Shown here: in pieces, positions 12,480 to 32,958 of the stretch | Position numbering within the stretch: position 1 is the stretch's first letter | How the letters are laid out: the number at the start of each line of letters is the position of its first letter | Assembly: GCA_046351635.1 (NCBI GenBank) | Contig: JAXLYC010000019.1 | Span: 1 to 46,034, forward strand | Direction of reading: 5' to 3' | Source of the DNA: Nannocystaceae bacterium | GTDB lineage: Bacteria > Myxococcota_A > Polyangia > Nannocystales > Nannocystaceae | Length of the DNA stretch: 46,034 nt | Notes under the pieces: model-generated | What the model saw: the letters and a program-made list of their open reading frames with translations, nothing else | Told to the model about the DNA's origin: nothing | Databases searched by the model: none | Translations under genes and position numbers: made by a program

Positions 12480-12735
12480 TTCCTGTCCGTGGTCGACGTG
12501 GTCGACGCCAGGCCGGGGCACCCGCGGGGCCGCTCCGGGCGCTCCGGGCCATCGGGCTGCTAGCGTCGGCAGCGTCGGCAACATCGCCCACGACGAACGC
12601 CTGGTTCAGGGCCCCGATGACAAGTCGCAGCCGTTAGATGTCTTGGGCTGCTGCTCGCCCACGTCCTGGCCCCCGTCCGGTGTCCGGTCGTCATGGGTCG
12701 TCGGTCGTCGTCGGTCGTCGTCGATCTGTCCCGAG
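12480..12735. repeat. Cluster of five short (7-12 bp) head-to-tail tandem duplications in non-coding DNA
   Basis: Read directly: gtggtcgac-gtggtcgac, gctccgggc-gctccgggc, agcgtcggc-agcgtcggc, gtccggt-gtccggt, and (ggtcgtcgtc) three times, all within about 250 bp. Confidence 0.5.
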
Positions 12736-13981
12736 CAACCTCTGCGGTTCGCTCTGCTGCCCAACATATCAGGCATTCAGCGGCGGGAGCATCAGGCGTA
12801 GCTCGATGAGCCGTCCCGTTACAACGGCTTGTTGGGCGGGCCCCCCGAAGACGTGGCGTCATATCCGGCGCGGTTGGACTTCAAAGCTGCGGCTTTTAGA
12901 TTTTCAGCCTGGGACCATCTGCCGGTACACGGACCATGTAGCAGAAACAGCTCTTCTCAAGTAGAGTGGGGGTCTTGAGGCCGCTCGGTCAATGGGCTCA
13001 AGTACGTCGATACCGGAACTCCACAAGCCTGTGCAGATAGAACACAGCGTACTTCTGTTTTTGTAGTGGCGAGCACCGCCTTCGTAGCGAGCGTCTCCGT
13101 TTCCGTGATCGCCGTCCCGTCGTCTGCTGTATGCGAAATCGATCCCGCGTCTGCCTTTCAGCATGGCGCCGTGTTCCACCGTCGTCTTTCGCGATGCGGT
13201 CCATCTGTGGTGGCGGCGAATGATCTCGCTGCCGACGAGGCGGTCCCAGTCGGCGAGCGGCTCTCCCCCTCGCGCGGCGCGCTTTCCGTCACAATGTCGA
13301 GATTGTAGTAGCGTGACTGCTTCGCGAATCTTGTGAGAAGCATGACCATGTTCTTCACGATTTCGTCATCAGGCGTGGCGTCTGCTCCAAGTCCGCGGAC
13401 CTCGTTTATCTCTCGCCTTATTCAGCAGGTTGTCGACATCGTGGCCCAGATCGCGGAGATATCTGTTGTCAGGGGTCTTCCATGCGTTCGATAGTAGTCG
13501 AGAACGACGATCAGCTTAAGAGAATGCGTTCAACCCGATCGTGAACGCGAATGACCGAGCGAAAAAATGCGCCTTTGTCGCCGAACGTATAGCGACGAAT
13601 GGAGTCGAACCCGTAGCAATATTGCTTGCGAAAGGATAGAATCGCCTCGAGTAGGAGGGGCCTCGATACGCTTCCATTAGCGCCTCCTCTGGGTTTCGTT
13701 TCGAGAACCGGCTCAGGCGCGCGTTATCGATTATTCGCACCAGACGTCGCACGCTTCATCCTTCCGGAGGTTGAGTAGCTTTGCGGATGTGAATCCCCAG
13801 CGCGCTCCCTCGACAAACACGTGCTGTCCCCCTCTTCCCAGCCAAGGCACCAGGTTCTCGCCTGGAACATATCCAGTGATCACCGAGGCCTCTCATCCGC
13901 GATACCGTGTTCAATCGGGTACTCGCTTGGGGACGCGTCTGTGGCCGGGCCGCGTGCAGCAGAGCCGCGCCGATTCTCCAG

Positions 13982-14446
13982 TCAACGGGGATAATAAGTT
14001 ACTTCGTGCTCCGCGCAAGGAGTGAAAAATGCGAGGCGGTCGGGGTTTGCGACAGCGTTTGGACTTCGTCGCAAGTTCTCGTAGAAGTCGGCACAGCTTT
14101 CGAAGCTGCTGCGACAGGAATTCGAGACCGGGTGTCGTCGAGAACAAAGACGCAATAGGCTGTTGGCCGCGGTGAAGCGAAAAGTGCTCGCTATGTGCGG
14201 TGTAGCGAGCTGCACACTGAGAGCGTGTTCGGAGCAGGTGTCCGCGAGTAGTTGCCCGTTCTCTCGCGCCATCCAGCAGGACCACTGGGGGCGTGCTTCA
14301 ACATCGGGCTGCGTCGCTCTTGCGGCGCCTTCCGAAGTTGCCATCGCGCCTGCGCGCTCGACTCGTAGGGACGCCTCGTCAGGTGCACCGCCACACGAAG
14401 CGAAGAGTCCTGATTCCACCGATGGCAACGACGCGCAGGGGCCCAT
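13982..14446 (-). CDS. Longest ORF inside the low-GC island (154 aa), hypothetical; may be a relic
   Basis: The composition is not Arg-rich (...RENGQLLADTCSEHALSVQLATPHIASTFRFTAANSLLRLCSRRHPVSNSCRSSFESCADFYENLRR...), but I recognise no motif. Confidence 0.2.
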   Translation of the reverse strand: MGPCASLPSVESGLFASCGGAPDEASLRVERAGAMATSEGAARATQPDVEARPQWSCWMARENGQLLADTCSEHALSVQLATPHIASTFRFTAANSLLRLCSRRHPVSNSCRSSFESCADFYENLRRSPNAVANPDRLAFFTPCAEHEVTYYPR

Positions 14447-15084
14447 GAGCAGGCTTGAGCCCAGCGCTGCTTGCCGCGTTCGATGTCGTCGCGGAGGTCA
14501 TCTTCACGCTCGCGCCTCTCAGCAGAACTCCAGGGGCGCTCCAGTGATCGCGGATACGGAGGCGACAAAGGCGACGGATCTGCTCGTCGTCGAGCTTGGA
14601 CAAGATGGGAAAATCGGTGGCGTTCCCGGCAGGCCCAGCGCCTGGGACCTCGACCCGAACGACGTTGAGGGGTAGCGCCCGTCTTCGACGCCCACGCCCA
14701 GTTCTTCGCGGGGTCCGTCTTGTGCTGCACCCACGCGCGCCAGGCCGTCAGGCCCTTGGCCTCACTCGACGTACTTCTGCCCATTGTGTCCGTGCTGAAT
14801 CGGTATCCACCGCATCAGGCTGCGCCTCGCGCCCATCGTAATTCGGCCAGACCCGCCCAGGCGCGCTTCTTCAGCAACGACCCAGCCTTTCGCGACCGTG
14901 CCAACACCCCTCACCACGATTCCACCGAGATCCCGGCCTTGCACCCCAAGCCCCCCGACTTTCCCCCGACCGCGTTATCCTGCAAGCTCGCTGCGTTTGT
15001 CCTTTCGGGCAACACTGCGAGCCGAGTTCGCGGGCTCGAGGCGTTCGGCGAATCGGCAGGTGTCCGGGCATGCGTGGCCGGCGA

Positions 15085-15215
15085 ACGGCTGGGAGTCGCG
15101 GTATCGCCCATGTTCGCACGCCTGCCAGCGCGCGGTTGAGCACGTGGGTGTAGACCATCGTGGTGTTCACGTCGCGCGTCTCCATCAGGCGCGCCCATGC
15201 GCCGGCGAAGCGCTC
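15085..15215 (-). pseudogene. 3'-terminal remnant of a tyrosine recombinase gene with the integron-integrase-type C-terminal box (catalytic Tyr)
   Basis: The minus-strand translation ERFAGAWARLMETRDVNTTMVYTHVLNRALAGVRTWAIPRLPAV matches the IntI-family C-terminus (LLGHSDVSTTMIYTHVLxxGGxGVRSPLDxLP). Only about 45 residues are present. Upstream of it, the minus strand is occupied by the cupin gene in another frame. Confidence 0.55.
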
Positions 15216-15244: not shown

Positions 15245-15730
15245 TCAGCGCGACTCGGGAAACCCGCTGCCATCCTTGCGGGTGAACAGCGCGCGTCCGT
15301 CGGGCCCCTTGCGGTACGCGAGGTCGACGTCGGGATACTCCGCGCCGTCCTCGAGGTCGCGGTTGCTGATCTCGAGGTAGCGCGCGTCCCGATCGCTGCG
15401 GTTGATCAGCTGATGCCCGTCGCGCGAGCCCGCGGCGAAGCCCGCACACATGCCCGCGGTCAGGATCTGCTCGCCGGCGTCGGTCACGAGCACGACCTCG
15501 CCCTCGAGCACGTAGACCAGCTCGTCCTCGCGCGTGTGCCAGTGACGCATCGCCGACTCCTTGCCCGGCGGCAGCGTGGTCAGGTTCACGCCGATCTTGG
15601 TCAGGCCCAGCGCGTCGCCCAGCGCCCGCTTCTCGCGCGGCAGCACGCGCGAACGATAGGGCTCGGGATAACCAGAGCCGGTGCGAGGGGACAGCGTCGC
15701 GGGGTCGAGTGCGGGGAGCAGCAGTGCCAT
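15245..15730 (-). CDS. Cupin-domain protein
   Basis: MALLLPALDP... with a cupin-2 core (GVNLTTLPPGKESAMRHWHTREDELVYVLEGEVVLVTDAGEQILTAGMCAGFAAG). ATG at 15730 and TGA at 15245-15247, both confirmed. Confidence 0.75.
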   Translation of the reverse strand: MALLLPALDPATLSPRTGSGYPEPYRSRVLPREKRALGDALGLTKIGVNLTTLPPGKESAMRHWHTREDELVYVLEGEVVLVTDAGEQILTAGMCAGFAAGSRDGHQLINRSDRDARYLEISNRDLEDGAEYPDVDLAYRKGPDGRALFTRKDGSGFPESR

Positions 15731-15759
15731 CGCTGCCGTCGTACCATGGCCACGGCCCC

Positions 15760-16503
15760 GTGAGCACCGTCGCCGAGGTCCGCGCCGCACTGCGTCAGGC
15801 CGCTTCGCCCGAGCGGGCGCAGGGTGCCGCGCGGTTCTTCAAGACCGGCAAGGGCGAGTACGCCGAGGGCGATGTGTTCATCGGCGTACCCGTGCCCGCG
15901 GTGCGCACGATCGTGCGGCTGCACCGCGAGCTGCCGCTCGCCGGCGTCGACGCGCTGCTGCGCTCGAAGGTGCACGAGGAGCGACTGACCGCGCTGTTGC
16001 TGCTGGTCGATCGCTACAAGCGCGCCAAGCGTGACGCGGCCGCGCGCGAACAGATCGTGCAACTTTATCTCGATCGGCTCGCGCACGTGGACAACTGGGA
16101 TCTGGTCGACAGCAGCGCGCCACAGCTGCTGGGCGCGTGGTTGTTCGAACGCGAGCGTGACCAGCTCGATCGCCTGGCCGCGTCCGAATCGCTGTGGTCG
16201 CGGCGTGTCGCCATGGTCGCGACGCAGTACTTCATCCGCAAGGGCGAGGCCGAGGACGCGCTACGCATCGCGACCACGCTGCTCGGCGACCGCCACGATC
16301 TCATCCACAAGGCTGTGGGCTGGATGCTGCGCGAGGTCGGCGAGTCGGTCGATCTCGCGGCGCTGCGCGGGTTCCTGCGCAAACACGCCGCGACCATGCC
16401 GCGCACCGCCCTGCGCTACGCCATCGAGAAGCTGCCGGCGGACGAGCGCGCGCGGTGGCTGCAGGCCCGCGATGGCTCGAAGGACCGCCGCTCGCGCGGC
16501 TAG
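15760..16503 (+). CDS. DNA alkylation repair protein (AlkD-like HEAT-repeat glycosylase family)
   Basis: The GTG at 15760 is in frame (VSTVAEVRAALRQAASPERAQGAARFFKTGKGEYAEGDVFIGVPVPAVR...). Typical AlkD-family N-terminus and length (247 aa). Divergent from the cupin gene with about 29 bp between the starts. Confidence 0.7.
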   Translation: MSTVAEVRAALRQAASPERAQGAARFFKTGKGEYAEGDVFIGVPVPAVRTIVRLHRELPLAGVDALLRSKVHEERLTALLLLVDRYKRAKRDAAAREQIVQLYLDRLAHVDNWDLVDSSAPQLLGAWLFERERDQLDRLAASESLWSRRVAMVATQYFIRKGEAEDALRIATTLLGDRHDLIHKAVGWMLREVGESVDLAALRGFLRKHAATMPRTALRYAIEKLPADERARWLQARDGSKDRRSRG

Positions 16504-17741
16504 CGGCCCGGACGCCGCGGGCGGCGGCGCATCGCCGCGATCGCGACCACCAACCATGCCGTCACGCCGCTGCGATCGCGCGTGTCCGCGCGGCACTGGC
16601 AACCGCTGGGCTCGATGTGGCCGTCGTCGTCGATGCCGACCGTCAGCGTGCTCGCACCCGAGTTGCCGCCCGCCGAGTCGCCGCTGCTGCCGTCCTCGCT
16701 CGAGCCACCGTCGCCGGCCGAGTCGCCACCAGTGCCCGCGCCACCGCCCTCGCTGCTGCCCGAGCCGCTGCCGCCGTCGTCGCCCGGGTCCCAATCGCCG
16801 CTCGCGCGGCGGTTGTTGGCGGTGAAGGTCATCGCGGCGAAGGCCGCGAGGTCGAGGCCGGTGTTCGCGACGTAGACCGCGCCGCCACCCATCCCGCTGC
16901 CGGCGGGCCAGTTGTGGCCCACGCCCATCGAGGTGACAAACGCGATGCGCTCGCCCTGGGCGTCGTCGTAGCGGACGCCGGTGCCGGCGGGGTTGGTGCC
17001 GGGCAGCGTCGCGACGTCGAGCGCACCCGTGGTCAGATCGCCGCCGTAGAGCGTCGCGAACATGTCGGCGTTGATCTGCGCGTAGCCCTGCGCGACCGTG
17101 AAGTCCTGCGTGTCGGTGAACGTGATCGCGACCTGGGTCGCGAACTCGCCCACGTGTTCGCCGGCGAACTGCTGGCACAGCGCGACGGTCTGCTCGACCG
17201 TCGTGCCGACCTGCGCGATCTGGGCCACGGTCGTGCCCAGCGAGGGACCCGCGGAGATCGCCAGGCCCGCGAAGAGCTCGGGCGCGAGGCAGCCGACGAT
17301 GAGCGCCTGACCGCCGCCCGACGAGAAGCCGGTGAGGTAGACCTGCGCGGGATCGATGCCGTAGCTGGGGTCGTCGCGCAGGGTCTGGGTCAGCTCGAGC
17401 AGCGGCGCGTTGTGCCCGCTCGTGCGATCGTGGGTGGGCCCGTAGTAGTCCCAGCAGCCCGCGATCACACCGCCACCGGGCACGGTCGGCAGCGCGAGGA
17501 CCATGCCGAAGTCCTCCGCGGTCTGCTCGAATGCGCCGTACTGCCGCAGGTTCGCGCCGGTCTGCGCGCAGCCGTGCAAGCCCAGCATCAGCGCACGGCC
17601 TTCGCCGATCGGGCTGTGCGATGCTGGGGTGTAGACCTCGACGCTCATGCCCGCGATCGGCTTGGTCTCCCACGCCGCGCGCGCGGACGATGGCAGCGAC
17701 AGTGCGGCGATCAACGTGAACCCCAGGGTGCTCGTGCGCAT
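16500..17741 (-). CDS. PHB-depolymerase-family (LpqC-like) esterase with signal peptide and C-terminal MYXO-CTERM sorting signal
   Basis: MRTSTLGFTLIAALSLPSSARA signal peptide. Esterase motifs LHGCAQTG and YLTGFSSGG. A Gly/Ser/Asp linker precedes the C-terminus PSGCQCRADTRDRSGVTAWLVVAIAAMRRRPRRPGR (Cys motif, hydrophobic stretch, Arg-rich tail). Confidence 0.8.
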   Translation of the reverse strand: MRTSTLGFTLIAALSLPSSARAAWETKPIAGMSVEVYTPASHSPIGEGRALMLGLHGCAQTGANLRQYGAFEQTAEDFGMVLALPTVPGGGVIAGCWDYYGPTHDRTSGHNAPLLELTQTLRDDPSYGIDPAQVYLTGFSSGGGQALIVGCLAPELFAGLAISAGPSLGTTVAQIAQVGTTVEQTVALCQQFAGEHVGEFATQVAITFTDTQDFTVAQGYAQINADMFATLYGGDLTTGALDVATLPGTNPAGTGVRYDDAQGERIAFVTSMGVGHNWPAGSGMGGGAVYVANTGLDLAAFAAMTFTANNRRASGDWDPGDDGGSGSGSSEGGGAGTGGDSAGDGGSSEDGSSGDSAGGNSGASTLTVGIDDDGHIEPSGCQCRADTRDRSGVTAWLVVAIAAMRRRPRRPGR

Positions 17742-18370
17742 CAGCGTGGATCTCCGTCGTGGGGGCCAGCCAGACCGAGGCCGGCGCGGATCAAGGCGAA
17801 CACGTCGTCGATGGTCTCGGCCGGCGGAAGGCGGCCCTCCCACAGCACCCAGCGCATGCCCATGAAGTCGAAGATACCCATGAGCGCATAGGCGACCGCC
17901 TCCGGATCGAGCGCACGGATCTCGCCGCGCTGCATGGCCTTGGCCAGGCCGTCGCGGTAACCCTGCGCCAGTCGGCGGTAGTATTCGCGATGCAGCGCCT
18001 CGTCGACGAACTCGGCCTGGCGGATGATGCGATACAGGTTCTTGTGCTCCTGCACGAAGTGCAGGAACGCGACCAGACCCGCGCGCTCGATCGCGAGGCG
18101 ATCGGCGAGTCCCTCGACCGCGGCCGCGAGCGTGCGGCGCAGCGTCGCGCCGAGCTCGTCGACCAGCTCGGCGAAGATCGCCTTCTTGCCGCCGAAGTAC
18201 AGGTAGAAGGTGCCCTGGGCCACGCCGGCGGTGCGCGTGATGTCGACGATCGACGCGGCCTCGTAGCCGCGTTCGCCGAACACGACCTCGGCGGCCTCGA
18301 GCAGGTTCTGCCGCGTGCGCTGGCCCCGGGCCGTGACGGGCTCGGCGATGGCGTCGCTCCCGGTCGCCAT
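17741..18370 (-). CDS. TetR/AcrR family transcriptional regulator
   Basis: MATGSDAIAEPVTARGQRTRQNLLEAAEVVFGERGYEAASIVDITRTAGVAQGTFYLYFGGKKAIF is a classic TetR helix-turn-helix. 209 aa. Start and stop codons overlap the neighbouring genes (cTGATGc at both ends). Confidence 0.85.
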   Translation of the reverse strand: MATGSDAIAEPVTARGQRTRQNLLEAAEVVFGERGYEAASIVDITRTAGVAQGTFYLYFGGKKAIFAELVDELGATLRRTLAAAVEGLADRLAIERAGLVAFLHFVQEHKNLYRIIRQAEFVDEALHREYYRRLAQGYRDGLAKAMQRGEIRALDPEAVAYALMGIFDFMGMRWVLWEGRLPPAETIDDVFALIRAGLGLAGPHDGDPR

Positions 18371-19827
18371 CAGCCCTCCTCCGCGGCTGCGATCGCGGCG
18401 CGGCCGCGCGCGAACAGCAGCGCCAGACCGACCATCATGCTGACGAAGATCGCCGCGCAGGCGGACACCGCGGGGTTGTCGACCGTGCCGTGCCACAACA
18501 GCCCCACGTGGGTGACCAGGGCCGTGGCCGCGGCGGTGCCGACGATCCACGCCGGCATCGCGCCGCGCACGATCACGCCGAACACCACCGGCACGAACGA
18601 CGCCGCGGCCAGGGCATACACGCCGCGTTGGGCGAACAGGCCCACCAGCGCCGGCGGATCGAGCGCGAGCACGAACGAGACCAGGCCCACGCCCACCAGC
18701 GCCACCCGCGATGCCAACAGCCCGGTCTTGGCGTCTGCGTCGCGGCTGCGGCCGCGCAGCACCAGATCGTGCGTGACCATGGCCGACAGCGCGACCAAGA
18801 TGCCGTCGAGCGTCGACATACCCGCGGCCAGCATCGTCACCAAGGTGATCGCGGAGACCATCTCGCCCGCGGTGCCGCCGCCGAACGCGAGCGTGACGTA
18901 GTCGGTCACCACGCGGTCCTGCTGCTCCGGGCCGTAGCTCATGCCGTCGAGCCGCGCGTACAGGCCGGTGAACAGGCACAGCGAGAACACGCAGCCCAGC
19001 GCGACCGCAGTGACGATGAAGCGGTTCACGTCGCGCTCGCTGCGGAGGTACAGCACCTTGGTGATGATGTGCGGCTGCAGCATCAGCGCGAACGTCACGA
19101 CGAAGGCGCTGACGAACACGGAGAACACCGAGCCGTAGAGGTCGCTGTCGGGGTTGACGGGCGCGGCGAAGTTGCTCGAGACCTTGGCGAACGCGTCGAC
19201 GATGCCGTCGCCCAGGTGCTCCGCGCCCGAGGCGAACATCGCGACCGCGATCACGGCCATCATCGCCGCCTGCACCACGTTGGTGTAGGCGTGGGCATAG
19301 GTGCCGCCGAGCAGCACGTAGCTGAACACGACCACGAGCGTGCCCGCGAGCGCGATCTCGTAGGATACGCCCAGTAGCGCGACCACCAGCAGCGCGCAGC
19401 CGACCATGATGAGCACGACGAAGCTGATCGACAACAGGTTGAGCACGGCGAAGCCCCGCGCGAGCGCCTCGCTGCCGTAGCGCGCGCGGATCCAGTCCGG
19501 TACCGTGAGGCTGCCGTGGCTGTCACCGACGCGGCGGAAGCCCTTGCACACCGCGAGCAGACCGAACGCCACGCCGGCCTGGGCCGCCACGCCGTAGTGC
19601 AGCAGCGCCGAGAGCCCGTGGGTGTAGACGAAGCCGGGGTTGATCACGAACGTCGCGGTCGATGCGATCGACGCGGCCATGACCACACCGACGAGCACCG
19701 GGCCCATGTCGCGATTGCCGATGGCGAAGCCGACCAAGGAGGTGGTCTTGCGCATGCCGATCCACGACAGCCAGTAGACCGCGACGAGGTAGACCGCGAG
19801 CAGCGAGAGCTTGACCAGCAGGATCAC
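18370..19827 (-). CDS. Sodium:solute symporter (SSS) family transporter
   Basis: About 13 predicted transmembrane helices (VILLVKLSLLAVYLVAVYWLSW...). GTG start at 19827 with GGAGGG seven bases upstream. The start overlaps the upstream hydrolase stop (GTGA). Confidence 0.75.
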   Translation of the reverse strand: MILLVKLSLLAVYLVAVYWLSWIGMRKTTSLVGFAIGNRDMGPVLVGVVMAASIASTATFVINPGFVYTHGLSALLHYGVAAQAGVAFGLLAVCKGFRRVGDSHGSLTVPDWIRARYGSEALARGFAVLNLLSISFVVLIMVGCALLVVALLGVSYEIALAGTLVVVFSYVLLGGTYAHAYTNVVQAAMMAVIAVAMFASGAEHLGDGIVDAFAKVSSNFAAPVNPDSDLYGSVFSVFVSAFVVTFALMLQPHIITKVLYLRSERDVNRFIVTAVALGCVFSLCLFTGLYARLDGMSYGPEQQDRVVTDYVTLAFGGGTAGEMVSAITLVTMLAAGMSTLDGILVALSAMVTHDLVLRGRSRDADAKTGLLASRVALVGVGLVSFVLALDPPALVGLFAQRGVYALAAASFVPVVFGVIVRGAMPAWIVGTAAATALVTHVGLLWHGTVDNPAVSACAAIFVSMMVGLALLFARGRAAIAAAEEG

Positions 19828-21065
19828 GGCGAGCCCTCCGCGTCGGCGCGGTCGCGACGGCGCGCGGCGACCGGCTCCGTCGGCGGCGGTGCGTCGACGC
19901 TCGGCTGCGGCGGCGGATCGCCGGCCGGCACCTCCGCCGGGCTCGACGTCGGCGTGGGCTCGGCCGACGCGGGCGCCGATGGCTCGGGCTCGCGCGGCGC
20001 GGCGGCGCTGGGTCGCGCGTCGGGATCGGTGCCCGGGGCGTACAGCGGCTCGACGCTGGTGCCCGGCGCCGCCATCCGCGGCTTGCGCGTGCGTTCGCCC
20101 TTGGGCACGCGGACGTCGTCGAGAAAGCGCAGCACCGCGCTGTTCCACGCGTCGGCGGCCTCGAACTGCGCGAAGTGTCCCGCGCGTTCGAGCATCACCA
20201 GCTGACCATCGCGCATGGTCTCGACCGCCTTCTTGGCCAGCCGCTCGGTGCTGCCGCCGTGCAGCAGCGGGTTGGGGATGAGGTTGTCGTACTCGCCGAA
20301 CACCACCAACGTCGGCAGCTCGAGGTCGCGCAGGCGATCGACGACCGGGCCGTCGAGCATGCCCGCGACCGAGCGCGAGACCGCGTTGCAGTAGGCTTCG
20401 AAGTCGGGCCCACCGACCACCGCGAGGCGATCACGGACCATGAACTCCGCGGACTTGGGCACGCGGTGGAAGTTCTGCGTGTGGCGCAGCCACACCGCCT
20501 CGGCGTCGGCCTTGCACGTGAACTCGGGCGTGGTCGCGCCGGCGAGCCAGTGCGCCTCGCCGTCGGCGAAGCGCTCGAGCCCGGCGGGCGACGACAAGAC
20601 CAGCGCGTCGACGTCCTGCGGGTACTCGAGCGCGTAGGTCATCGCGATCTGGCCGCCCATCGAGTGACCCACGAGCACGACATGCGACAGTCCCAGCTCG
20701 CGCACCACGCCGCGCACGGCCTTGGCGAAGAAGGCCATCGAGTAGTCGTAGTTGCCCTTGGAGCTCTTGCCATAACCGGGCAGGTCGATCGCGACCACGC
20801 GGTGGCGGGCCGACAGCGCCGCGAGGTTCTCCTTCCACGCCGGCATCGAGCTGCCCAGGCCGTGGATCAGCACCAGCGTGCGCGCGTCCGCGTCCGCGGG
20901 CGCGCCGCTGTCGTGCACCGCGATGGTGGCGGTGCCGACCGCCAGCTGTCGCGTGGGCATGGGGTACTGCAGCGCCGAGAAGGCCACGCCGGACTTCGCG
21001 GCACAACCGCCCGCGAGCAGGGCCGCGAGCAGCAACGTGGGCAGCGTGCGAGTGGGTCGCGTCAT
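19824..21065 (-). CDS. Alpha/beta-hydrolase-fold lipoprotein with Pro-rich C-terminal tail
   Basis: MTRPTRTLPTLLLAALLAGGCAAK lipobox. HGLGSS and GHSMGG nucleophile-elbow motifs. C-terminal low-complexity Pro/Ala/Glu tail. ATG at 21065 confirmed. Confidence 0.8.
   Translation of the reverse strand: MTRPTRTLPTLLLAALLAGGCAAKSGVAFSALQYPMPTRQLAVGTATIAVHDSGAPADADARTLVLIHGLGSSMPAWKENLAALSARHRVVAIDLPGYGKSSKGNYDYSMAFFAKAVRGVVRELGLSHVVLVGHSMGGQIAMTYALEYPQDVDALVLSSPAGLERFADGEAHWLAGATTPEFTCKADAEAVWLRHTQNFHRVPKSAEFMVRDRLAVVGGPDFEAYCNAVSRSVAGMLDGPVVDRLRDLELPTLVVFGEYDNLIPNPLLHGGSTERLAKKAVETMRDGQLVMLERAGHFAQFEAADAWNSAVLRFLDDVRVPKGERTRKPRMAAPGTSVEPLYAPGTDPDARPSAAAPREPEPSAPASAEPTPTSSPAEVPAGDPPPQPSVDAPPPTEPVAARRRDRADAEGSP
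19834..19839 (-). promoter_or_regulatory. Shine-Dalgarno (GGAGGG) for the SSS transporter, embedded in the 3' end of the hydrolase gene
   Basis: The minus-strand sequence ggagggctcgccGTGatc is read directly. Confidence 0.5.
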
Positions 21066-21073
21066 CGGTGGCC

Positions 21074-22666
21074 TCACAACATCAACCACTTGAGCGTGAG
21101 CATGGTGGTCCAGGGATCGCGCGGACGTTGGCTCTCGCCGCTGCTGCCCGTGACGATCTCGGGGCTGGCGAAGTAGTCGCCCAGGCGCAGGTACGCCGCG
21201 TGGGCCTCGAGCGACAGCATCGGGCGGATGCGCCACGAGACGTTGCCGTTGACCTCGGCGCCCATGAAGTAGGCGCCCTGCACCGGCTGCACGTTCGATC
21301 GCGCGAACGCACCGCCGATGCGAGCGGACAGCTTGTTGCGCAAGATGTCGCCCGAGACGCCCAGCGACAGCGCGGTCATGCCGTAGCCGGCGTTGGAGAT
21401 GTCCGCGGCCGCGGCGTAGTAGCGGTTGACGACGTTGGCGTGGGGCAACAGCAGGTAGGTGCCGAAGCTGGTGAACGGCGCCGCCGGTGAGCCCCAGGTG
21501 TTGCCGGTGACGACGCCGGTGTAGCTGCCGTCCTGCAGACCGTTCTTGTCGCCCGAGGTGTAGAGGAAGTCGGCGGTGACGGCATCGCGGGCGGTGCGAC
21601 CCCATCGCGCCGCGAGCCGCACGTTGGCGGCGAGCCCGAGCACGTTGGTGAGCTTCTGGAAGTCGCCGGGCTGGTTGGGGATCGCGGTGACGATCTGGCC
21701 GAAGTTGCCGACCATGAAGGCCGAGCCGCCGAAGCGACCGGCGGCGAGCTCGGGGTTGAACGAGGTATCGCCCGCGAGCCACAGGAAGTGGCCGCGCCAG
21801 CTCGGGGCATCATCGGGGATCGTGAAGCGGTAGCCGCCGTTGTAGTCGACCAGCACGCTGTCGGGGCCCTGGCCGAGGATGCCGACGCCGCCCTGACCGG
21901 TGGAGGTGTCCCGCAGGTATCGCAGACTGCCGCCGACGTGCCAGGTCTTGCCCAGGTGGCGATCGGTCGCGAGCTCGAACAGCGCGACGTCGTCGTCCTT
22001 CTGGATCAGGTTCTCGTACAGCTGATAGGCGCCGAGCTTGAAGCGCTGTCCCGCGGTGGTGCCGTGCAACACTGCGCCGACCGCATCGGTGCCCCAGAAG
22101 GCCATGCGCGTGCCGGTCAGCTGCATCGTCGGCACCGGCGTGCGGTAGGGATCGTAGGTGCTGTCGTAGAGCCGCTGCAGGCCCACGTCGATCGACCAGC
22201 CCTTCCACAGATCGATCTCGACCGCGAGGTTCTGCGTCTGCAGGTTGACCTGGTCCGCGGTGATGGCCGAGCCGAAGTTGCCGCCGGCGGAGTTGGAGGT
22301 GTCGCCGAAGGTCCAGTCGAGCTCGAACGAGGCCCGCAGTCGCGCGCGGTGATCGAGCAGCGCCGGCTCGACCACCGCGAAGGGGATGAGCCGCTGCTCG
22401 AGGAAGACCGCGCGCTCCTTCGACGTGGTCGTGGTGTTGGGCCCGAACAGGCGCCCGACGATCTGACCCTTGAACAGGTCGTTCTGCGGCGAGACGTTGG
22501 TCATCTCGGCGCGGGTCATGAAGTAGCCGTAGAGCTGGAACGCGCGCCACGCTCGCTTGCTGCGCTGCAGCTGCTCGGGCGCCTGCTGCACCGCGACGTC
22601 GGGCAGCGGCGGCGGTGAGGGTGCCCACGCGGTCGTGAGCGCGGCGAGCAGCGTGGACGTCAACAT
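21074..22666 (-). CDS. Outer-membrane beta-barrel protein (possible polysaccharide/solute porin)
   Basis: Signal peptide MLTSTLLAALTTAWAPSP. 530 aa with alternating amphipathic beta-strand character rich in Gly/Tyr/Asn. Ends ...LTLKWLML. Stop 8 bp upstream of the hydrolase start. Confidence 0.6.
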   Translation of the reverse strand: MLTSTLLAALTTAWAPSPPPLPDVAVQQAPEQLQRSKRAWRAFQLYGYFMTRAEMTNVSPQNDLFKGQIVGRLFGPNTTTTSKERAVFLEQRLIPFAVVEPALLDHRARLRASFELDWTFGDTSNSAGGNFGSAITADQVNLQTQNLAVEIDLWKGWSIDVGLQRLYDSTYDPYRTPVPTMQLTGTRMAFWGTDAVGAVLHGTTAGQRFKLGAYQLYENLIQKDDDVALFELATDRHLGKTWHVGGSLRYLRDTSTGQGGVGILGQGPDSVLVDYNGGYRFTIPDDAPSWRGHFLWLAGDTSFNPELAAGRFGGSAFMVGNFGQIVTAIPNQPGDFQKLTNVLGLAANVRLAARWGRTARDAVTADFLYTSGDKNGLQDGSYTGVVTGNTWGSPAAPFTSFGTYLLLPHANVVNRYYAAAADISNAGYGMTALSLGVSGDILRNKLSARIGGAFARSNVQPVQGAYFMGAEVNGNVSWRIRPMLSLEAHAAYLRLGDYFASPEIVTGSSGESQRPRDPWTTMLTLKWLML

Positions 22667-22684
22667 GGCGCGGACCCCGTCGAG

Positions 22685-23362
22685 CTACTGGCGGACGAAC
22701 ACCTGGGTGAGATCGGGGCCGAGCGACGTCGCGCCGAAGCCGGCCTCTGCGGTCGGCGCGACCGCGCCGACGCTGGGCTCGGTCTGCACGACCTCGTAGC
22801 GCAGCACCGCCGGGCTCACGCTGTCGTCGATCTCGAAGATGCCCTCGACCGTGATCGCCTGCGGCATGGTCTGCTCGAGCGTGATGTCGAAGATCTCGCC
22901 GACACCCGAGGGCGTGGCGGTGTAGACCCCGACCTGCTGCACCTGCTGGCCCTGGTCGTCGATCGTCACGACGGTGAAGGCCTGGGGCCCGAAGGTCGCG
23001 GTGATCGAGGTCGCGCCGGTGAGCTCGACCAACAAGGGCGCGATGTCGTCGCCCTCGCTGAGCCACGCGCCCTCGAGCGTGACGGGCTGCGCCGCGGTGT
23101 CGTCTGCGCCGCCCGAGTCCGAGCCTGCATCCGCGCCGCCGTCGACCGCGGTGTCGCTGGTGTCCGCTGCCGAGTCCAGTCCGCCGGAATCCACCGCGCC
23201 CTCGCCTGCGTCGTCGCCAGCGTCGTCGCCGACGCTGGCGGCATCGCCCGCGCTCGCGTCGGTGTCACCGACGCTGTCTCCGGAGGTCCGCGCGGTGGTG
23301 GAGACGCCGGCGCCACTGCAGGCGGTCAGCAGCGCGAGCACGACGAAGGGCTTGGTTCGCAT
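22685..23362 (-). CDS. Acidic lipoprotein, hypothetical
   Basis: MRTKPFVVLALLTACSGAG lipobox. Asp/Gly/Ser-rich linker then a folded C-terminal domain. ATG at 23362 confirmed. 18 bp upstream of the outer-membrane protein gene. Confidence 0.6.
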   Translation of the reverse strand: MRTKPFVVLALLTACSGAGVSTTARTSGDSVGDTDASAGDAASVGDDAGDDAGEGAVDSGGLDSAADTSDTAVDGGADAGSDSGGADDTAAQPVTLEGAWLSEGDDIAPLLVELTGATSITATFGPQAFTVVTIDDQGQQVQQVGVYTATPSGVGEIFDITLEQTMPQAITVEGIFEIDDSVSPAVLRYEVVQTEPSVGAVAPTAEAGFGATSLGPDLTQVFVRQ

Positions 23363-23543
23363 GGTGGATCCCCGGCTGCCCGCCATGTCGCAGTGCAACA
23401 TGACGAGCGATTCAGGTCTCATACTCGACGCGTGCGGGCCTGTCAAGGCGCCCTGGCGGGGGAATTCTCCCCTCGCGGGCCTTTCGCATCGCAGCGAGAC
23501 CGGGCTTCGCCCGACCCCCGAGGAAGCGCGCAGGCGTGCGACG

Positions 23544-26500
23544 TCAGCGACGGCGACGACGCCCAGACACTGCGACGACGACGACCAGTGCCCACGGCCA
23601 CGCGTGCGCGCGGGTCGTGGTGCAGCCGCAGCCGCCGCTGCCCTCGCCCTCGCCGTCGGCACCGGCGCTGCTGCTGCCACCGCTGCCGTCGGCGTTGCCC
23701 GAGCTCGCGCCGGCGGTGCCACCACTGCCGTCGCCACCACTGCCGTCGGCGCCGGTGTCGGTGCCGGCAGGATCGGGCGGCAGCGGCGAGTCGAGCAACC
23801 ATCGCACCGTGCGACGCACCTCGGTCTCGTTGCCGGCGAGGTCCTTCACCCGCGCCATGACCTCGACCTCGGGGTCCGACAGCGCGGTCGCGAGCGGGAT
23901 CTCGAGCACGTCGTGGGGCATCGCGCCGCCCTGCGCCAACATCGTCGCGCACGTTCCGGCCTCGTCGAGCACGCAGACCTCGAGCGAGGCGACGTCGATG
24001 CCGCTGGGGATGTCGACCGTGCCGACGCGCAAGGCGGTGACGGCGTCGCCGTCGTAGAGCGCGGCGAGGTTGAGCGTGGGCTTCTGCGTGTCGGTCAGCT
24101 CCTCGGGTCCACCGGGCGCGCCGATGTCGATCCAGCGGCCCAGGATGCCGAGCTGCTCCGGTGTGATCGTGGTCGGGTGATCGGGGCCGAAGTCGAGGTC
24201 GCGATCGTCGGGCGGCGACGCCTCGTCGAAGCTCGCGTCGGTGTTGCCGTCGGTGCGCATGCCCGCGGCCTTCCAGTACAGCGGGCTGCCCAGCGAGTTG
24301 AACGCGCGCACGTAGCGGGTCAGCTGTGGCCGGCGGAAGGTCGTGCCGTTGGTCGTGGCCATGCGCTGGGCCTCGGGCACGCACGACTGGCCGCGATCGG
24401 CGACCAGACACCACCAGGTCGAGTCCTGCTCGACCCCAGGGCGATCGAGCGCGAGCGATCCGTCGGGCGCGTCGCCGCTGTGGCACTGCGCGCAGTGCTC
24501 GTCGAAGATCGGCATGATGTCGCGCTCGAAGTCGATCTGCAGCGCGTAGCCCTCGACCTCGCGCACGGCCGGGCCCTGCGCGCCCGCACCCGCCAGCAGC
24601 GGCACGGTGCCCTCGCCCAGCGGGATCACGGGGTAGTCCGGCATCGCGGCGTAGCTGTCCTCGAAGCCGATGCGCGAGTCCTTCGAGTGCACGTGGCAGC
24701 CGCCGCAGGTCTTCATCTCGCCCGGCCGCAGGCTCTGCCAGCTCTGATCGGTGTTGAGCGTGTGGCCGTCGCAATCGATGCCCTGCATGAGATAGGGCGT
24801 GTTGGCGGGGAAGCGCACCAGGAAGCTGGTGTCGGCGTTGCCGCTGGGATCGACGACCGGCGCGCCGTCTTGCAGGTTGCGCACGCCGAACTCGCCGAGG
24901 ATGACCACGCGCTCACCGGCGACGTTGGCGATCTGCTCGTAGAGGTTGGTGCCGCGGTTGGGCAGCACGCCCAGGATGCGCACGCCGCAGAGATCCTCGT
25001 CGCCGTACTCGATCGTGTCGGTGCCCTGCAGATTGAACTGGTGCTCGCCGGCGAAGTGGATGCCGCCGACCGGGTGGGTCTCGCGATCGGTGATCGAGGC
25101 CGCGCCGAGCAGGCCGAACGGCGTGCCGACCGGCAGCTCCGGGCGCGAGGCCTGCTGGTCCGCGCGGGGGATCGCGGCCGGCGTCTCGATGCCGTGGATC
25201 GCCGCGTAGGGCACGACCGCGCGGGCCATGATCTCGTGCCACTGCGGCTCGTCGACCACGCGCTCGAGATCGCTGGGATGCTCCGAGGGCATCGTCGCGA
25301 CCTCGTAGATGCCCGCGTCGCACGCCGGCGTGTCGAGCTGCAGCTGGGTGAAGACGTTGGCCGCGACGCCCTGCCCCGAACCCGAGGTCGCCGGCGGCAC
25401 CGGCAGGCCCAGCGCGTCGAAGATGCCGTTGTCGGCCACGGTCCCGCACGCGCCCTTGCCCCACGTCGCCATCAGCCCGCCGTCGGGCAGCGCCGCGGCG
25501 TGGCCGAGCTTGCCGGCGAACACCACCGGATCGGCGTAGTTCGGATCCTGGTACGCGGGCGCGGGCATCACCGCCGCGAAGGAATCGCTGCTGCTGGACC
25601 AAGGCGCCAGCCGCACGATGTCGTGCGGCGCGTACAGATCCGCCAGCGGCGCAGTGGGATCGAGCATGCCCTCCTGCCCCGCCGGCTCGGGCATCACGCC
25701 CACGAGGTTGCCCAGGCCGTTGTTGTTGCCGCGGTAGTAGTCGGTGAACCACACGCGGCCATCGCCGGTCTGCGCGAGGAAGTGCGCGGCCTTGTGATCG
25801 ACGCCGGCGCTGGTGATGGGCGAGTGGTCGCCGCAGTGCTGGCCGTAGAACGCGAACGGATGCGCGCCGTCGGGCGCCTGCACGAAGATGTTGAAGGCGT
25901 TGCCGATGGTGCCGAAGCCACCCGGGCTGCCGTTGGTGTAGCGGAACGTCAGACCACCGAAGATCTGCCAGCTCGAGTAGGCCACGCGACCGTCGGCGAG
26001 CACCAGCGGGTGTTGCTCGAGCGACAGCGAGTGGTGACTGGCGAGATCGAGATTGCGACCGTCGGGATCGACGGTCCAGATGCGCGAGCCGTTGCCGGCG
26101 TTGTTGGTGCCCCACACCATCGTGGTGAGGTTGCCGTCGCGCGTGGAGGTGAACGCCAGGCGCCCGTCGGGTAGCCACGCCGGCCCCGCGTCCCAGGTGC
26201 CGGGCAGCCACGGCAGCTCGGTGAGCTCACCGGTCGCGACATCGACCAACATCAGCTGCGCGTGCTCGGTCTGCAGCAGCTTGCCCGGCAGATCGTGCCA
26301 CGCGTCGTCGCCACCGACCGCGACGGAGAAGTTCTCGCTGTTCGGCGTCAACGTGCCGCGGAAGACCGAGAACGCGATGGTCTCGCCGTCGAACGACACC
26401 GCCGGATCCATCGCCGCGCACGCGGCTGCATCGGTGCTCTCGCTGCCGCAGTCGTACAGCAGCGACTCGCTGCCGTCGGGTTGCCGCAGCACCAGATCGC

Positions 26501-26750
26501 ACGGCGCACTGAAGCCGCTGTAGAAGTGCGTGACGTCCGGCAGCACGTCGTAGACGTCGATGCCGATCATCGTCGTGCCCGGCAGCTGCAGCGGCTCGGT
26601 CGTGCGCGGGCAGCGGACGTAGGCGATCGGATGATCGAGCGCTTGGGCGCTGGGCACCAGCCACGGCACGGCCACGGCCGCCGCGATCACCAGGGGCGAG
26701 ACGTGCACCGCGCGGAGCACAGGACGGGGACGACGGCCGGGGGTGCGCAT
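23544..26750 (-). CDS. Large secreted protein: PD40/TolB-like beta-propeller repeats, two CxxCH motifs (one matching the PSCyt1 pattern), C-terminal MYXO-CTERM
   Basis: Signal peptide MRTPGRRPRPVLRAVHVSPLVIAAAVAVPWLVPSAQA. WLPDGRLAFTSTRDG-type propeller repeats. Two CxxCH motifs: MKTCGGCHVHSKD and FERDIMPIFDEHCAQCHSGDAPDGSLALD (the second fits the PSCyt1 pattern). The C-terminus GCGCTTTRAHAWPWALVVVVAVSGRRRRR is a MYXO-CTERM signal. Confidence 0.75.
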   Translation of the reverse strand: MRTPGRRPRPVLRAVHVSPLVIAAAVAVPWLVPSAQALDHPIAYVRCPRTTEPLQLPGTTMIGIDVYDVLPDVTHFYSGFSAPCDLVLRQPDGSESLLYDCGSESTDAAACAAMDPAVSFDGETIAFSVFRGTLTPNSENFSVAVGGDDAWHDLPGKLLQTEHAQLMLVDVATGELTELPWLPGTWDAGPAWLPDGRLAFTSTRDGNLTTMVWGTNNAGNGSRIWTVDPDGRNLDLASHHSLSLEQHPLVLADGRVAYSSWQIFGGLTFRYTNGSPGGFGTIGNAFNIFVQAPDGAHPFAFYGQHCGDHSPITSAGVDHKAAHFLAQTGDGRVWFTDYYRGNNNGLGNLVGVMPEPAGQEGMLDPTAPLADLYAPHDIVRLAPWSSSSDSFAAVMPAPAYQDPNYADPVVFAGKLGHAAALPDGGLMATWGKGACGTVADNGIFDALGLPVPPATSGSGQGVAANVFTQLQLDTPACDAGIYEVATMPSEHPSDLERVVDEPQWHEIMARAVVPYAAIHGIETPAAIPRADQQASRPELPVGTPFGLLGAASITDRETHPVGGIHFAGEHQFNLQGTDTIEYGDEDLCGVRILGVLPNRGTNLYEQIANVAGERVVILGEFGVRNLQDGAPVVDPSGNADTSFLVRFPANTPYLMQGIDCDGHTLNTDQSWQSLRPGEMKTCGGCHVHSKDSRIGFEDSYAAMPDYPVIPLGEGTVPLLAGAGAQGPAVREVEGYALQIDFERDIMPIFDEHCAQCHSGDAPDGSLALDRPGVEQDSTWWCLVADRGQSCVPEAQRMATTNGTTFRRPQLTRYVRAFNSLGSPLYWKAAGMRTDGNTDASFDEASPPDDRDLDFGPDHPTTITPEQLGILGRWIDIGAPGGPEELTDTQKPTLNLAALYDGDAVTALRVGTVDIPSGIDVASLEVCVLDEAGTCATMLAQGGAMPHDVLEIPLATALSDPEVEVMARVKDLAGNETEVRRTVRWLLDSPLPPDPAGTDTGADGSGGDGSGGTAGASSGNADGSGGSSSAGADGEGEGSGGCGCTTTRAHAWPWALVVVVAVSGRRRRR

Positions 26751-26934
26751 GGCGACCTCCAGAGGTCGCGCGAGCGCGGCGAAACGGCTCACGGGCCCGC
26801 ACGGGTGTGGGGCCACGGTGCGTGCCCCGACCCGCGCCCGTGCGCGGTCGCGCGGGTGGCGAGCTGACACACCCCGCGCGCGGTATCGTCGAGCCTGCGC
26901 CGCCCCGCGGCACCGGGCAGCGCAGGCCCGACGC

Positions 26935-28019
26935 ATGAGACTCGATCCCACCCTCGCGCTCCCGTTCGCCGTGGCACTGGCGTGCCACGCACCGACCACC
27001 TCGCCCGGCAGCGCGCCCGCGGTCGCGCAGGATTCCGCGACGCGGCTGCAGGTGCGGGTCGATCCGCGCGTCGAGCTGTTCTCGATGCTGTGGCGCACCG
27101 CTGGCATCCCGCCCTACGCGCCGCAGGACGAGCATCGCACGCCCTACGAAGCGGCGGTCGACGCTCGCATGGCGCCGCTGCGGTCGCACCCCGCGGTGCA
27201 GCAGGCCGAGGCGCTGGCCGAGTCCAAGGGCATCGGCTTCGACGCGCCGATGAGCCTCGCGGTCACCTGAGCTGGCCCGAGCTCGAGCTCGTGCGTCCGC
27301 TGCAGCCCTGGCCAGCATCGCTCGACGACCGCTGGCAGGGGGTCGACATGGACGCGTGGCTCAGCACGGTGCGTTCGTTCGCGAGCGACGCGCGGCTGGC
27401 CGAGTTCTTCGGCGAGCAACGGCCGTTGTGGGACCGCGTCGACGCGACGATGGCGGCGTTCGTGCAGGCGCACGGTGCCGACGCGCCCCAGTGGCTGCAC
27501 GAGTTCAGCGGCACCGCGATCGCACAGACGGTGCTGGTCCAGGGCCTGCTCACCGAGCGCGGCAACTACGGCCCGCACGTCGTGCTGCCCGACGGGCGCA
27601 AGACCGCATACCAGATCATCGTGAACTGGCACCCCGACGAGGACGGCGTGCCACGGCCACAGCCCGATCTCGCGGTGTTCTACATCCACGAACTCGCGCA
27701 CAGCTACATGAACCCGCTGGTCGAGCGCCACGCGTCGATCCTGCAAGCCTCGGCGCAGGCGCTGTACGACCGACATGCCGCGGCGATGGAGGCAGTGGGC
27801 TACGGCGAGTGGTACTCGGTCGCGTGCGAGTCGTTGGTGCGCGCCGCGACCCGCACCTACCTGCACGATGATCCCGAGGCGGCCGCCGGCGCGGACGAGA
27901 ACGACCGCCTGCAAGGCTTCGCGTGGGTCCCCGAGGTTGCCGCCGTGCTCGAGCCACCACTCGACGAGACCGACATGACCGCGGTCGCACAGGTGCTCGC
28001 GCGCCACGGCGCGCCGTGA
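26935..28019 (+). CDS. HExxH-motif lipoprotein (possible zinc-dependent hydrolase), apparently frameshifted near 27265
   Basis: MRLDPTLALPFAVALACHAP lipobox in the frame of ORF 26743. That frame ends ...GFDAPMSLAVT*, and the protein continues in the frame of ORF 26982 (LSWPELELVRPLQPW...YIHELAHSYMNPL...). The junction is at cggtcacctgagctgg. Confidence 0.6.
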
Positions 28020-29633: not shown

Positions 29634-29636
29634 CGC

Positions 29637-29702
29637 GGACAGCCCGCCCACGGTATCCACGACCGGCGCACGATTGAACCGCCCTCGACGCAGCCGCGAG
29701 AA
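29637..29702 (-). other. Relic of the 3' end of a UDP-sugar 6-dehydrogenase gene, in frame immediately upstream of the heparinase start
   Basis: The translation RLRRGRFNRAPVVDTVGGLS and the DNA around 29655-29712 are about 75% similar to the true 3' end of the dehydrogenase gene at 31570-31620 (RLRREWFNRPSVVDTVGLLTR*). Confidence 0.5.
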
Positions 29703-29836
29703 CCTGCCGTGTTGCAGCGACAGGACGCCCCACTGCGGTGCGCCGAGCCGGCCCCGCGTCACCGAGCCGTGCCCAACGCAGCGGCGCCGCAGCCCTCGCC
29801 GTCATCGCGACGGTGCCGACCGACCAAGGGCCCTGC

Positions 29837-31543: not shown

Positions 31544-31554
31544 GCGCGACGACG

Positions 31555-32817: not shown

Positions 32818-32958
32818 CTGCAAGACTCCATGTCATGCTACGGGCAAAGTCGTGATCGCGTCCATGGTGGGTAGGTTCGATTCCTCGCCGCGGTGGGTCC
32901 GGCAGCGCGCCGCGACTGTCATCGCCCGCGCGCTCGCGACAAGGATCGGGGTCTGGCC

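Follow-up and report, generated by a model that had tools for sequence, protein, structure and literature searches.

What is taken up, and what degraded, by a block of genes that brings together a lipoprotein, an outer membrane barrel, a hydrolase, a symporter, a regulator, and an esterase? This question is raised by six consecutive minus-strand genes, designated G1 to G6, in a 46,034-nucleotide stretch of DNA (contig JAXLYC010000019.1, positions 1 to 46,034, assembly GCA_046351635.1; hereafter the window, meaning this whole stretch) from a member of the Nannocystaceae in the Myxococcota. We consider it probable, with some reserve, that the block is a single TetR-controlled operon that scavenges extracellular poly-3-hydroxybutyrate (PHB), a short-chain polyhydroxyalkanoate (PHA), with PHB and oligomers of 3-hydroxybutyrate (3HB) as the most likely substrate on the basis of gene neighborhood alone. 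An initial annotation of this DNA had held that the substrate was not evident from the sequence; PHB and 3HB oligomers are now proposed from the neighbors of related loci, because these neighbors share the (R)-3-hydroxybutyryl-CoA/acetoacetyl-CoA node and include PHA-specific proteins.

The six-gene block and its conservation across phyla

At 72% G+C, spurious open reading frames are abundant in the window (52 of at least 80 amino acids occur across the 12 kb from 14 to 26 kb), and open frames alone are therefore weak evidence for genes. A frame plot of third-position GC singled out six consecutive minus-strand frames; third-position GC runs at about 0.8 to 0.99 inside them and drops at the gene junctions, and the lowest GC occurs in the phase that corresponds to codon position 2 on the minus strand. 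Together with inspection of start codons, from which the gene starts were taken, this plot upholds the placement of six minus-strand genes at 16500 to 23362:

22685 to 23362, minus strand: G1, lipoprotein with a lipocalin-like barrel, 225 amino acids (lipobox LLTAC; structure prediction)
21074 to 22666, minus strand: G2, predicted outer membrane beta-barrel, 530 amino acids (AlphaFold2 [AF2] model and Foldseek)
19824 to 21065, minus strand: G3, alpha/beta-hydrolase lipoprotein, 413 amino acids (lipobox Cys21; Abhydrolase_1)
18370 to 19827, minus strand: G4, Na+/solute symporter of the SSS family, 485 amino acids, GTG start (PF00474)
17741 to 18370, minus strand: G5, TetR-family regulator inside the block, 209 amino acids (TetR_N)
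16500 to 17741, minus strand: G6, secreted PHB-depolymerase-family esterase, 413 amino acids (TIGR01840)

The gene order first described, from lipoprotein, barrel, hydrolase lipoprotein, and symporter to TetR regulator and PHB-depolymerase-family esterase, was borne out by Pfam and NCBIfam searches and by structure prediction. The spacing also proved as read: 18 nucleotides separate G1 from G2 and 8 separate G2 from G3, followed by stop/start overlaps of GTGA at G3/G4 and of TGATG at both G4/G5 and G5/G6. G3, G5, and G6 each have a Shine-Dalgarno-like GAGG or GGAGG upstream of the start codon. We infer that all six genes are co-transcribed.

We compared loci by tblastn, with the window proteins and neighbor proteins as queries, at eight G2 homologue loci that were looked up individually and in a scan of species-representative genomes, which returned 439 G2-matching stretches; 80 loci from this set were analyzed. 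Cultured carriers among the genomes are Paraliomyxa miuraensis SMH-27-4 and Stygiobacter electus 09-Me. G1 lies immediately upstream of G2 in 15 of 15 Myxococcota loci and in 51 of 56 others, and G3 lies immediately downstream in 15 of 15 and 53 of 53, respectively. This G1-G2-G3 triad occurs in the Myxococcota (Nannocystaceae and Polyangia), the Bacteroidota (Bacteroidales, Saprospiraceae, Lewinellaceae, and others), the Ignavibacteriota, and the Calditrichota, with 40 to 57% identity between phyla for each of the three proteins. The full six-gene order is repeated in relatives within the Nannocystaceae (L009 to L012, L014, and L015), and the symporter, TetR, and esterase genes keep their order in relatives at 51 to 96% identity. 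The synteny check that the initial annotation had called for thus returned both the complete order in close relatives and a core shared by four phyla, and because the arrangement recurs in related genomes it is far from what chance would produce.

These data bear directly on the possibility that the six genes are neighbors of unrelated function that overlap simply because a gene-dense genome is tightly packed. Overlaps of four bases or of one base are indeed frequent in high-GC genomes; however, the contiguity of the triad in every Myxococcota locus and in over 90% of all loci from the four phyla, the retention of the symporter-TetR-esterase order in relatives, and the restriction of a conserved promoter to the region upstream of G1 (see below) all argue against it. 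As judged from sequence comparison, synteny brings chance adjacency close to exclusion, and we give it hardly any credence.

The genes that accompany the triad suggest what it acts on. Of the 15 Myxococcota loci whose downstream sequence is long enough, 13, including those of the Polyangia, have PHB-depolymerase-family esterases next to the triad; the esterases fall into two subtypes with a mutual identity of only 25 to 30%. Directly upstream in many Myxococcota loci (Nannocystaceae, Paraliomyxa, and others) are genes for PhaR and for a class-III-like PhaC with PhaE, as well as an acyl-CoA ligase and a KASIII-like gene. An SSF symporter gene and a TetR gene are each present in 7 of the 12 Myxococcota loci with full flanks. 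Outside the Myxococcota, the 40 full-flank loci carry an SSF symporter (39 of 40), a PhaB/FabG-type reductase (36 of 40), a KASIII-like gene (35 of 40), an acyl-CoA ligase (20 of 40), a butyryl-CoA:acetate-type CoA-transferase (17 of 40), a thiolase (14 of 40), and PhaC (6 of 40). Thiolase, PhaB/FabG-type reductase, SSF symporter, and CoA-transferase or ligase could together convert (R)-3-hydroxybutyrate to acetyl-CoA.

Several further features of these loci were recorded. The KASIII (FabH)-like gene is a near-universal partner of the triad (L003 to L005, L007, and L010 to L088), being found in 8 of the 12 full-flank Myxococcota loci in addition to the 35 of 40 given above, and it occurs in two copies in the Bacteroidales. 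In the Bacteroidales and their relatives, G3 is followed by a gene for a signal-less, helix-rich protein of 476 amino acids (L003:10824-12254 and orthologues), possibly a regulator. In the Nannocystaceae, a lipoprotein of 430 amino acids with GPxGP repeats is encoded between the TetR gene and the esterase gene (L007:13932-15224 and orthologues). Neither of these two proteins had a family match or a hit in a PDB sequence search.

The predicted promoter and the encoded proteins

The initial annotation had suggested that a TetR operator palindrome be sought upstream of G1, and a conserved promoter with an imperfect dyad turned up there:

23441 to 23446, minus strand: putative −35 hexamer TTGACA (read from the sequence and its conservation)
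23418 to 23423, minus strand: putative −10 hexamer TATGAG, 17 nucleotides past the −35 hexamer (from conservation)
23397 to 23418, minus strand: 22-bp imperfect dyad GACCTGA-N8-TCATGTT, candidate operator for the TetR regulator G5 (from conservation)

The comparison covered orthologous loci with 64 to 96% G2 identity. The −35 hexamer is invariant upstream of G1 in L007 and L009 to L014, while the 17-nucleotide spacer varies, and the −10 hexamer is kept as TATGAG or TATGAA in L007, L009 to L013, and L015 and differs in L014. Directly after the −10 hexamer comes a 23-nucleotide block, CTGAATCGCTCGTCATGTTGCAC (23393 to 23415, minus strand), which occurs once in the window, with 0 occurrences expected by shuffling, and is conserved in the orthologous loci (L007 and L009 to L015), with at most two changes in L007 and L009 to L014. 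Of the 11 possible pairs in the dyad of this block, 6 are complementary in the window, 8 in L011 and L012, and 9 in L015; in degenerate form the dyad reads (A/G)AC(A/C)TGA-N8-TCATGTT. A strict-consensus promoter and terminator scan of 16300 to 23700 returned no matches; the promoter reported here was missed because its −10 hexamer ends in G, whereas the scanner requires a terminal T, and it was accepted on conservation rather than on the consensus scan. G1 is predicted to begin a transcription unit, since the promoter and dyad are kept even where another co-directional gene precedes it, and a conserved promoter of this kind was found upstream of G1 only. The dyad overlaps the predicted transcription start, the position expected for a repressor, which makes it a candidate operator with G5 as the obvious candidate binder.

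Other candidate elements were discarded. Conservation of the intergenic inverted repeats CCTGTCAAGGCGCC/GGCGCCCTGGCGGG and GGGGGAATTC/GAATTCTCCC, considered as operators, stops at the relative with 96% identity. The leader also contains, at 23389 to 23397, a match to YGCRNYGCR, the core motif of PhaR-type regulators (PMC12542648); the window contains 131 copies of this motif, where chance alone would give 169, and on its own the match was given no weight.

The assignments of the regulator and the symporter in the initial annotation agree with the profile searches. G5 has the N-terminal helix-turn-helix domain of the TetR family (TetR_N, PF00440; E value of 7e-15; 55 bits against a cutoff of 24), with weak Pfam matches to TetR_C_24 and TetR_C_6, and falls below the cutoffs of its nearest NCBIfam models (ScbR, FasR, Bacillus FadR, and FabR). 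G4 matches the transmembrane core of the SSF family over residues 34 to 428 (PF00474; E value of 2e-34; 119.9 bits) and lies below the cutoff of TIGR00813 (99 against 184). Over its full length it has 31% identity (E value of 8e-86) to the SSF protein of a Bacteroidales cluster that also encodes thiolase, reductase, and CoA-transferase; the long G4 start is supported, because the Bacteroidales orthologue aligns from residue 9.

Neither G1 nor G2 matched any Pfam or NCBIfam model, and the two were characterized by structure prediction. G1 has 100% identity to a protein from a Nannocystaceae metagenome-assembled genome, which places the window in the Myxococcota. G1 is predicted to consist of a lipidated Cys15, an acidic disordered linker of about 75 residues, and a C-terminal eight-stranded antiparallel barrel of the lipocalin/calycin type (residues ∼95 to 225). 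The lipocalin fold is typical of proteins that bind hydrophobic ligands. G1 is probably a lipocalin-fold binder rather than a generic lipoprotein, exposed at the surface as the partner of the barrel G2. In the Bacteroidota, an export signal that directs lipoproteins to the surface has been defined experimentally as C-X-K-(D/E)2-X or SDDDD (PMC5080379). Outside the Myxococcota, 42 of 47 G1 orthologues carry such a signal (at least two acidic residues at positions +2 to +8 after the lipidated Cys), typically as C-x-K-S-(D/E)3, whereas a motif resembling this lipoprotein export signal is present in none of 46 G3 orthologues; this distribution indirectly supports a surface location for G1 and a periplasm-facing one for G3. 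Lipocalin-fold lipoproteins such as Treponema Tp0751, Bacteroides BACUNI_01346 and BACOVA_00364, and Escherichia coli Blc offer structural parallels, but G1 differs from them in having no sequence-family match and in being consistently encoded beside a specific barrel and an esterase.

The AF2 model of G2, built with 71 of its relatives (564 homologues were found in all), is an 18-stranded barrel (predicted local distance difference test score, 80.5; predicted template modeling [TM] score, 0.83). Its top Foldseek match in the PDB is the alginate export porin AlgE (3rbh; E value of 1e-17; TM score of ∼0.5 to 0.65) at 10 to 12% identity, followed by MOMP, Occ/OprD, and chitoporin, and the modeled fold is consistent with the outer membrane channel proposed from the sequence at the outset. 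By sequence, G2 has no match to the Alginate_exp family (PF13372), which only 3 of the 71 relatives touch (best E value, 1.7e-7). The resemblance to AlgE raises the alternative that the barrel works outward and that G1-G2-G3 exports or remodels a cell-made oligoester, polyester, or lipid that is produced by ligase, KASIII, and PhaC-type enzymes and trimmed at the surface by G6. An exporter as the nearest fold and the biosynthetic-looking PhaC, KASIII, and ligase genes that adjoin the triad in relatives are what this alternative would lead one to expect. Against it, no inner membrane synthase or copolymerase and no AlgK-like TPR partner is present, the most constant partner is an importer (the Na+/solute symporter, 39 of 40 loci), the thiolase and CoA-transferase are catabolic partners, the next structural matches after AlgE (Occ/OprD and chitoporin) are substrate uptake channels, and sequence similarity to Alginate_exp is confined to those 3 relatives. 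Export therefore seems improbable to us. G2 also differs from AlgE in its low identity, its lack of a Pfam match, the lack of an alginate biosynthesis context, and the inward direction of transport that we propose within the scavenging operon.

G3 is a member of the alpha/beta-hydrolase superfamily (Abhydrolase_1; E value of 6e-33) with a catalytic triad of Ser135 (in GHSMGG), Asp260, and His297 that, like the lipobox Cys21, is invariant in an alignment across phyla; its C-terminal tail is rich in Pro, Ala, and Glu. G3 is probably the periplasm-facing hydrolase lipoprotein of the initial annotation, in line with the missing surface export signal in all 46 orthologues outside the Myxococcota. 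Assignment of G3 to the known PHA depolymerases, oligomer hydrolases, or C-C hydrolases was considered and set aside, the similarity being at the superfamily level only: G3 scored 83.8 against a cutoff of 300 for NF050089 (i_nPHAscl) and 43.7 against 250.6 for TIGR02240, all specific NCBIfam equivalogs were far below their cutoffs, and no oligomer hydrolase family was among its Pfam matches.

G6 belongs to the PHB depolymerase family of esterases (TIGR01840, 155.1 bits against a cutoff of 107.85; Esterase_PHB, PF10503, 32.2 against 23). It has a signal peptide and the residue order of type 1 extracellular short-chain-length (scl) PHA depolymerases, with an oxyanion His56 in an LHGC motif that precedes Ser140 (GFSSG), Asp213, and His276. 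It falls just short of the model for these enzymes, the hypothetical equivalog NF050058 (140.3 bits against 150), and the orthologue in L007 reaches 142.7. Among solved structures, G6 is closest to the PHB-depolymerase-family esterase 8daj (E value of 4e-15 over 250 aligned residues), with which the GxSxG Ser, the Asp, and the His align and in which His56 falls on the LHGC motif; 8daj scores about 22 bits above a xylan esterase, and acetyl-xylan and feruloyl esterases are more distant PDB matches. No C-terminal PHB substrate-binding domain, as in classical multidomain depolymerases, was detected after residue ∼300. A Gly/Ser/Asp linker (∼310 to 375) is followed instead by a tail that resembles a sorting signal, with SGCQC (379 to 383), the helix WLVVAIAAM (396 to 404), and RRRPRRPGR. 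This is the tripartite MYXO-CTERM architecture of a Cys-containing motif, a transmembrane helix, and an Arg-rich end (PMC11980579). The score of the MYXO-CTERM hidden Markov model (TIGR03901) is borderline, at 20.4 bits for the isolated 52-residue tail and 14.6 for the full-length protein against a cutoff of 20; however, the tail is kept as IEPSGCQC...RRRR in seven orthologues (L009 to L012, L014, L015, and L017), and a looser Cys/helix/Arg tail is found in the L019 orthologue, in keeping with the MYXO-CTERM esterase originally described at the end of the block. From its sequence, G6 would be a PHB depolymerase family esterase in which an unusual surface anchor replaces the binding domain. Like type 1 extracellular scl-PHA depolymerases (NF050058; PDB 8daj/9byu), it has an oxyanion His within HGC ahead of the GxSxG lipase box, and Asp and His after it; unlike them, it has a linker and a MYXO-CTERM-type anchor and would be cell bound rather than released.

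Two side observations concern the exported proteins. In the Polyangia (L002:10576-12981; L021 to L024), an 801-residue protein called as two copies of Esterase_PHB comprises two tandem PHB-depolymerase-family esterases, which are of a different subtype from G6 and each have a MYXO-CTERM-like tail of their own. Long low-complexity linkers or tails, acidic and rich in Gly, Ser, and Asp or rich in Pro, Ala, and Glu, occur in all three exported nonbarrel proteins (G1 residues 25 to 95, G3 residues 325 to 413, and G6 residues 310 to 375); the counterparts of G1 and G3 in the Bacteroidota lack them.

Proposed substrate and route, and known systems

Starting from the observed gene structure, folds and families, cross-phylum synteny, and conserved cis-element, we infer from context and fold the following steps for a PHB-scavenging operon. 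G6 would be exported, its MYXO-CTERM tail cleaved and lipid anchored by a myxosortase, and the flexible acidic linker would hold the esterase on the surface, where it would cut PHB (for example, in granules from lysed prey or dead cells) into 3HB monomers and short, poorly soluble oligomers. G1 may then catch the oligomers and hand them to the AlgE-like barrel G2, so that the outer membrane would be crossed without TonB. In the periplasm, the lipoprotein esterase G3 would trim oligomers to monomers, and the Na+ symporter G4 would import the monomer, 3HB or another short hydroxy acid. Bound to the 22-bp dyad at the predicted transcription start, G5 would keep the promoter repressed until released by a metabolite of the pathway. 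The initial annotation had described a self-contained uptake and degradation module; the uptake and degradation parts hold, but a fully self-contained module does not, as the cytoplasmic steps adjoin the block in relatives (acyl-CoA ligase or CoA-transferase, KASIII-like protein, PhaB-like reductase, and PhaC/PhaE/PhaR) and are absent from this window.

Several points weigh against PHB as the substrate or against parts of this route. At loci outside the Myxococcota, no depolymerase was found within 10 kb of the triad, and the rest of the window contains no PHA-metabolic genes and no 3HB-activating or 3HB-oxidizing enzyme. The KASIII-like partner has no obvious role in 3HB catabolism, with an NphT7-like acetoacetyl-CoA synthase as one candidate idea. 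G3 is below the cutoff of every known 3HB oligomer hydrolase or PHA depolymerase model, and the homology of G4 does not reveal its substrate. G6 is below the specific depolymerase cutoff and lacks a substrate-binding domain, and its family includes feruloyl and acetyl-xylan esterases. Finally, the export signal rule by which G1 and G3 were placed is established for the Bacteroidota and not for the Myxococcota.

Some of these points would also suit a system with the same architecture and direction that acts on another ester, such as a different polyester, cutin or suberin fragments, a polysaccharide with acetyl or feruloyl groups, or short-chain acyl esters whose acids, once activated, would prime the KASIII-like enzyme. 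Acetyl-xylan and feruloyl esterases belong to the Esterase_PHB/TIGR01840 family and are among the PDB matches of G6 itself, G6 stays under the NF050058 cutoff, G3 is not assignable to a specific family, and the loci beyond the Myxococcota lack a depolymerase. Moreover, the KASIII-like, FabG-like, and ligase partners resemble a fatty acid priming module, and PHB leaves the constancy of the KASIII-like partner unexplained. Nevertheless, the adjacency of PhaR, PhaC, and PhaE is specific to PHA metabolism, the best solved match of G6 is a PHB-depolymerase-family esterase by the margin over xylan esterase given above, and the thiolase, PhaB-like reductase, and CoA-transferase suit a C4 hydroxy acid. 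Within what the queries could detect, the 80 loci contained no glycoside hydrolase or sugar transporter. We therefore regard another ester as a possible but less likely substrate and retain PHB scavenging as the favored account.

Among known systems, the block invites comparison with the Sus-like loci of the Bacteroidota, with which it would share a surface hydrolase, a surface binding lipoprotein beside a barrel, a periplasmic hydrolase, an inner membrane transporter, and a local regulator; the G1 orthologues outside the Myxococcota also share the lipoprotein export signal of SusD-type proteins. The parts are nevertheless different: G2 is modeled as an 18-stranded AlgE-like barrel without a plug or TonB box rather than a 22-stranded TonB-dependent transporter, G1 as a lipocalin barrel of 130 residues rather than a TPR-type SusD, and the proposed substrate is a polyester rather than a glycan. 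Neither G1 nor G2 has a TonB_dep_Rec or SusD Pfam match, and the SusC and SusD pair of a Sus-like polysaccharide utilization locus is therefore absent; the block as a whole works like a polymer utilization locus while failing the SusC/SusD definition.

Two further systems offer functional analogies. In Ideonella sakaiensis, the secreted polyesterase PETase frees small esters, the lipoprotein esterase MHETase finishes their hydrolysis, and the monomer is then taken up. The proposed succession of G6, G3, and uptake of the monomer would be analogous, although neither the enzyme families nor the substrate match, and we know of no dedicated lipocalin-plus-barrel pair described for the Ideonella pathway. 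Predatory Bdellovibrio exploits the storage polyester of its prey with a PHA depolymerase that acts inside the invaded prey periplasm (PMC11893044). G6 would likewise be a depolymerase for prey PHA encoded by a predator, but one tethered to the surface of the predator itself and paired with uptake proteins. A full-text literature search gave no published description of the locus; its coverage being incomplete, this negative falls short of proving that none exists.

Microbes use PHB and related polyesters as a major store of carbon, and industry sells them as a biodegradable plastic; PHA depolymerases are well studied. By comparison, the passage of PHA hydrolysis products across the outer membrane of Gram-negative cells is not well studied, and a 2025 review of PHA biodegradation is silent on uptake, on transporters, and on the outer membrane. 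For this import step, the locus supplies a candidate binder, channel, periplasmic esterase, symporter, and regulator, the last with a candidate operator. These candidates are kept across four phyla, including lineages abundant in wastewater and sediment. In a predatory myxobacterial family, the block suggests that the storage granules of prey are a targeted nutrient, and the G1-G2 pair would exemplify a surface lipoprotein with a non-TonB barrel outside the SusCD paradigm. More tentatively, G1-G2-G3 may constitute a previously undescribed TonB-independent outer membrane uptake machine for polyester fragments that is common to the Myxococcota, Bacteroidota, Ignavibacteriota, and Calditrichota, a possibility in which we have less than even confidence. 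In that case, extracellular PHA turnover would gain its missing import step, and many organisms, including predators and activated-sludge scavengers, would feed on or repolymerize the PHB of others.

Other features of the window

The block is flanked downstream by a convergent DNA alkylation repair gene (15709 to 16503, plus strand) that overlaps the G6 stop by 4 nucleotides. Upstream, after a gap of 181 nucleotides, lies a gene for a 1,187-residue protein (23544 to 27107, minus strand) that has a hydrazine-synthase-alpha middle domain, a PD40 repeat, and a clear MYXO-CTERM tail (23 bits). Because it adjoins the block only in the 96%-identical relative, it probably does not belong to the system. 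Farther upstream, positions 28023 to 37068 hold a cluster that resembles polysaccharide metabolism genes (heparinase II/III-like, UDP-glucose dehydrogenase, glycosyltransferase family 4, and an FGE-sulfatase-like gene) and appears unrelated to the six genes.

On the other side of the block, positions 12600 to 15200 have a G+C content of 0.51 to 0.64 and no frame with a coding third-position GC pattern, and Rfam and tRNA scans of the window, this region included, returned no matches. An integrase-like C-terminal peptide, TTMVYTHVLNRA, is encoded at 15141 to 15164 (minus strand), and the region resembles what is left of an integrated mobile element after decay. At 4623 to 10332 (minus strand), alpha-2-macroglobulin-like domains are split over frames, with A2M and bMG10 in 4623 to 6998, bMG3 in 8122 to 10332, and a third open frame, 7133 to 8300, between them. 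These frames probably derive from a single large gene interrupted by frameshifts, which would reflect an assembly error or a pseudogene.

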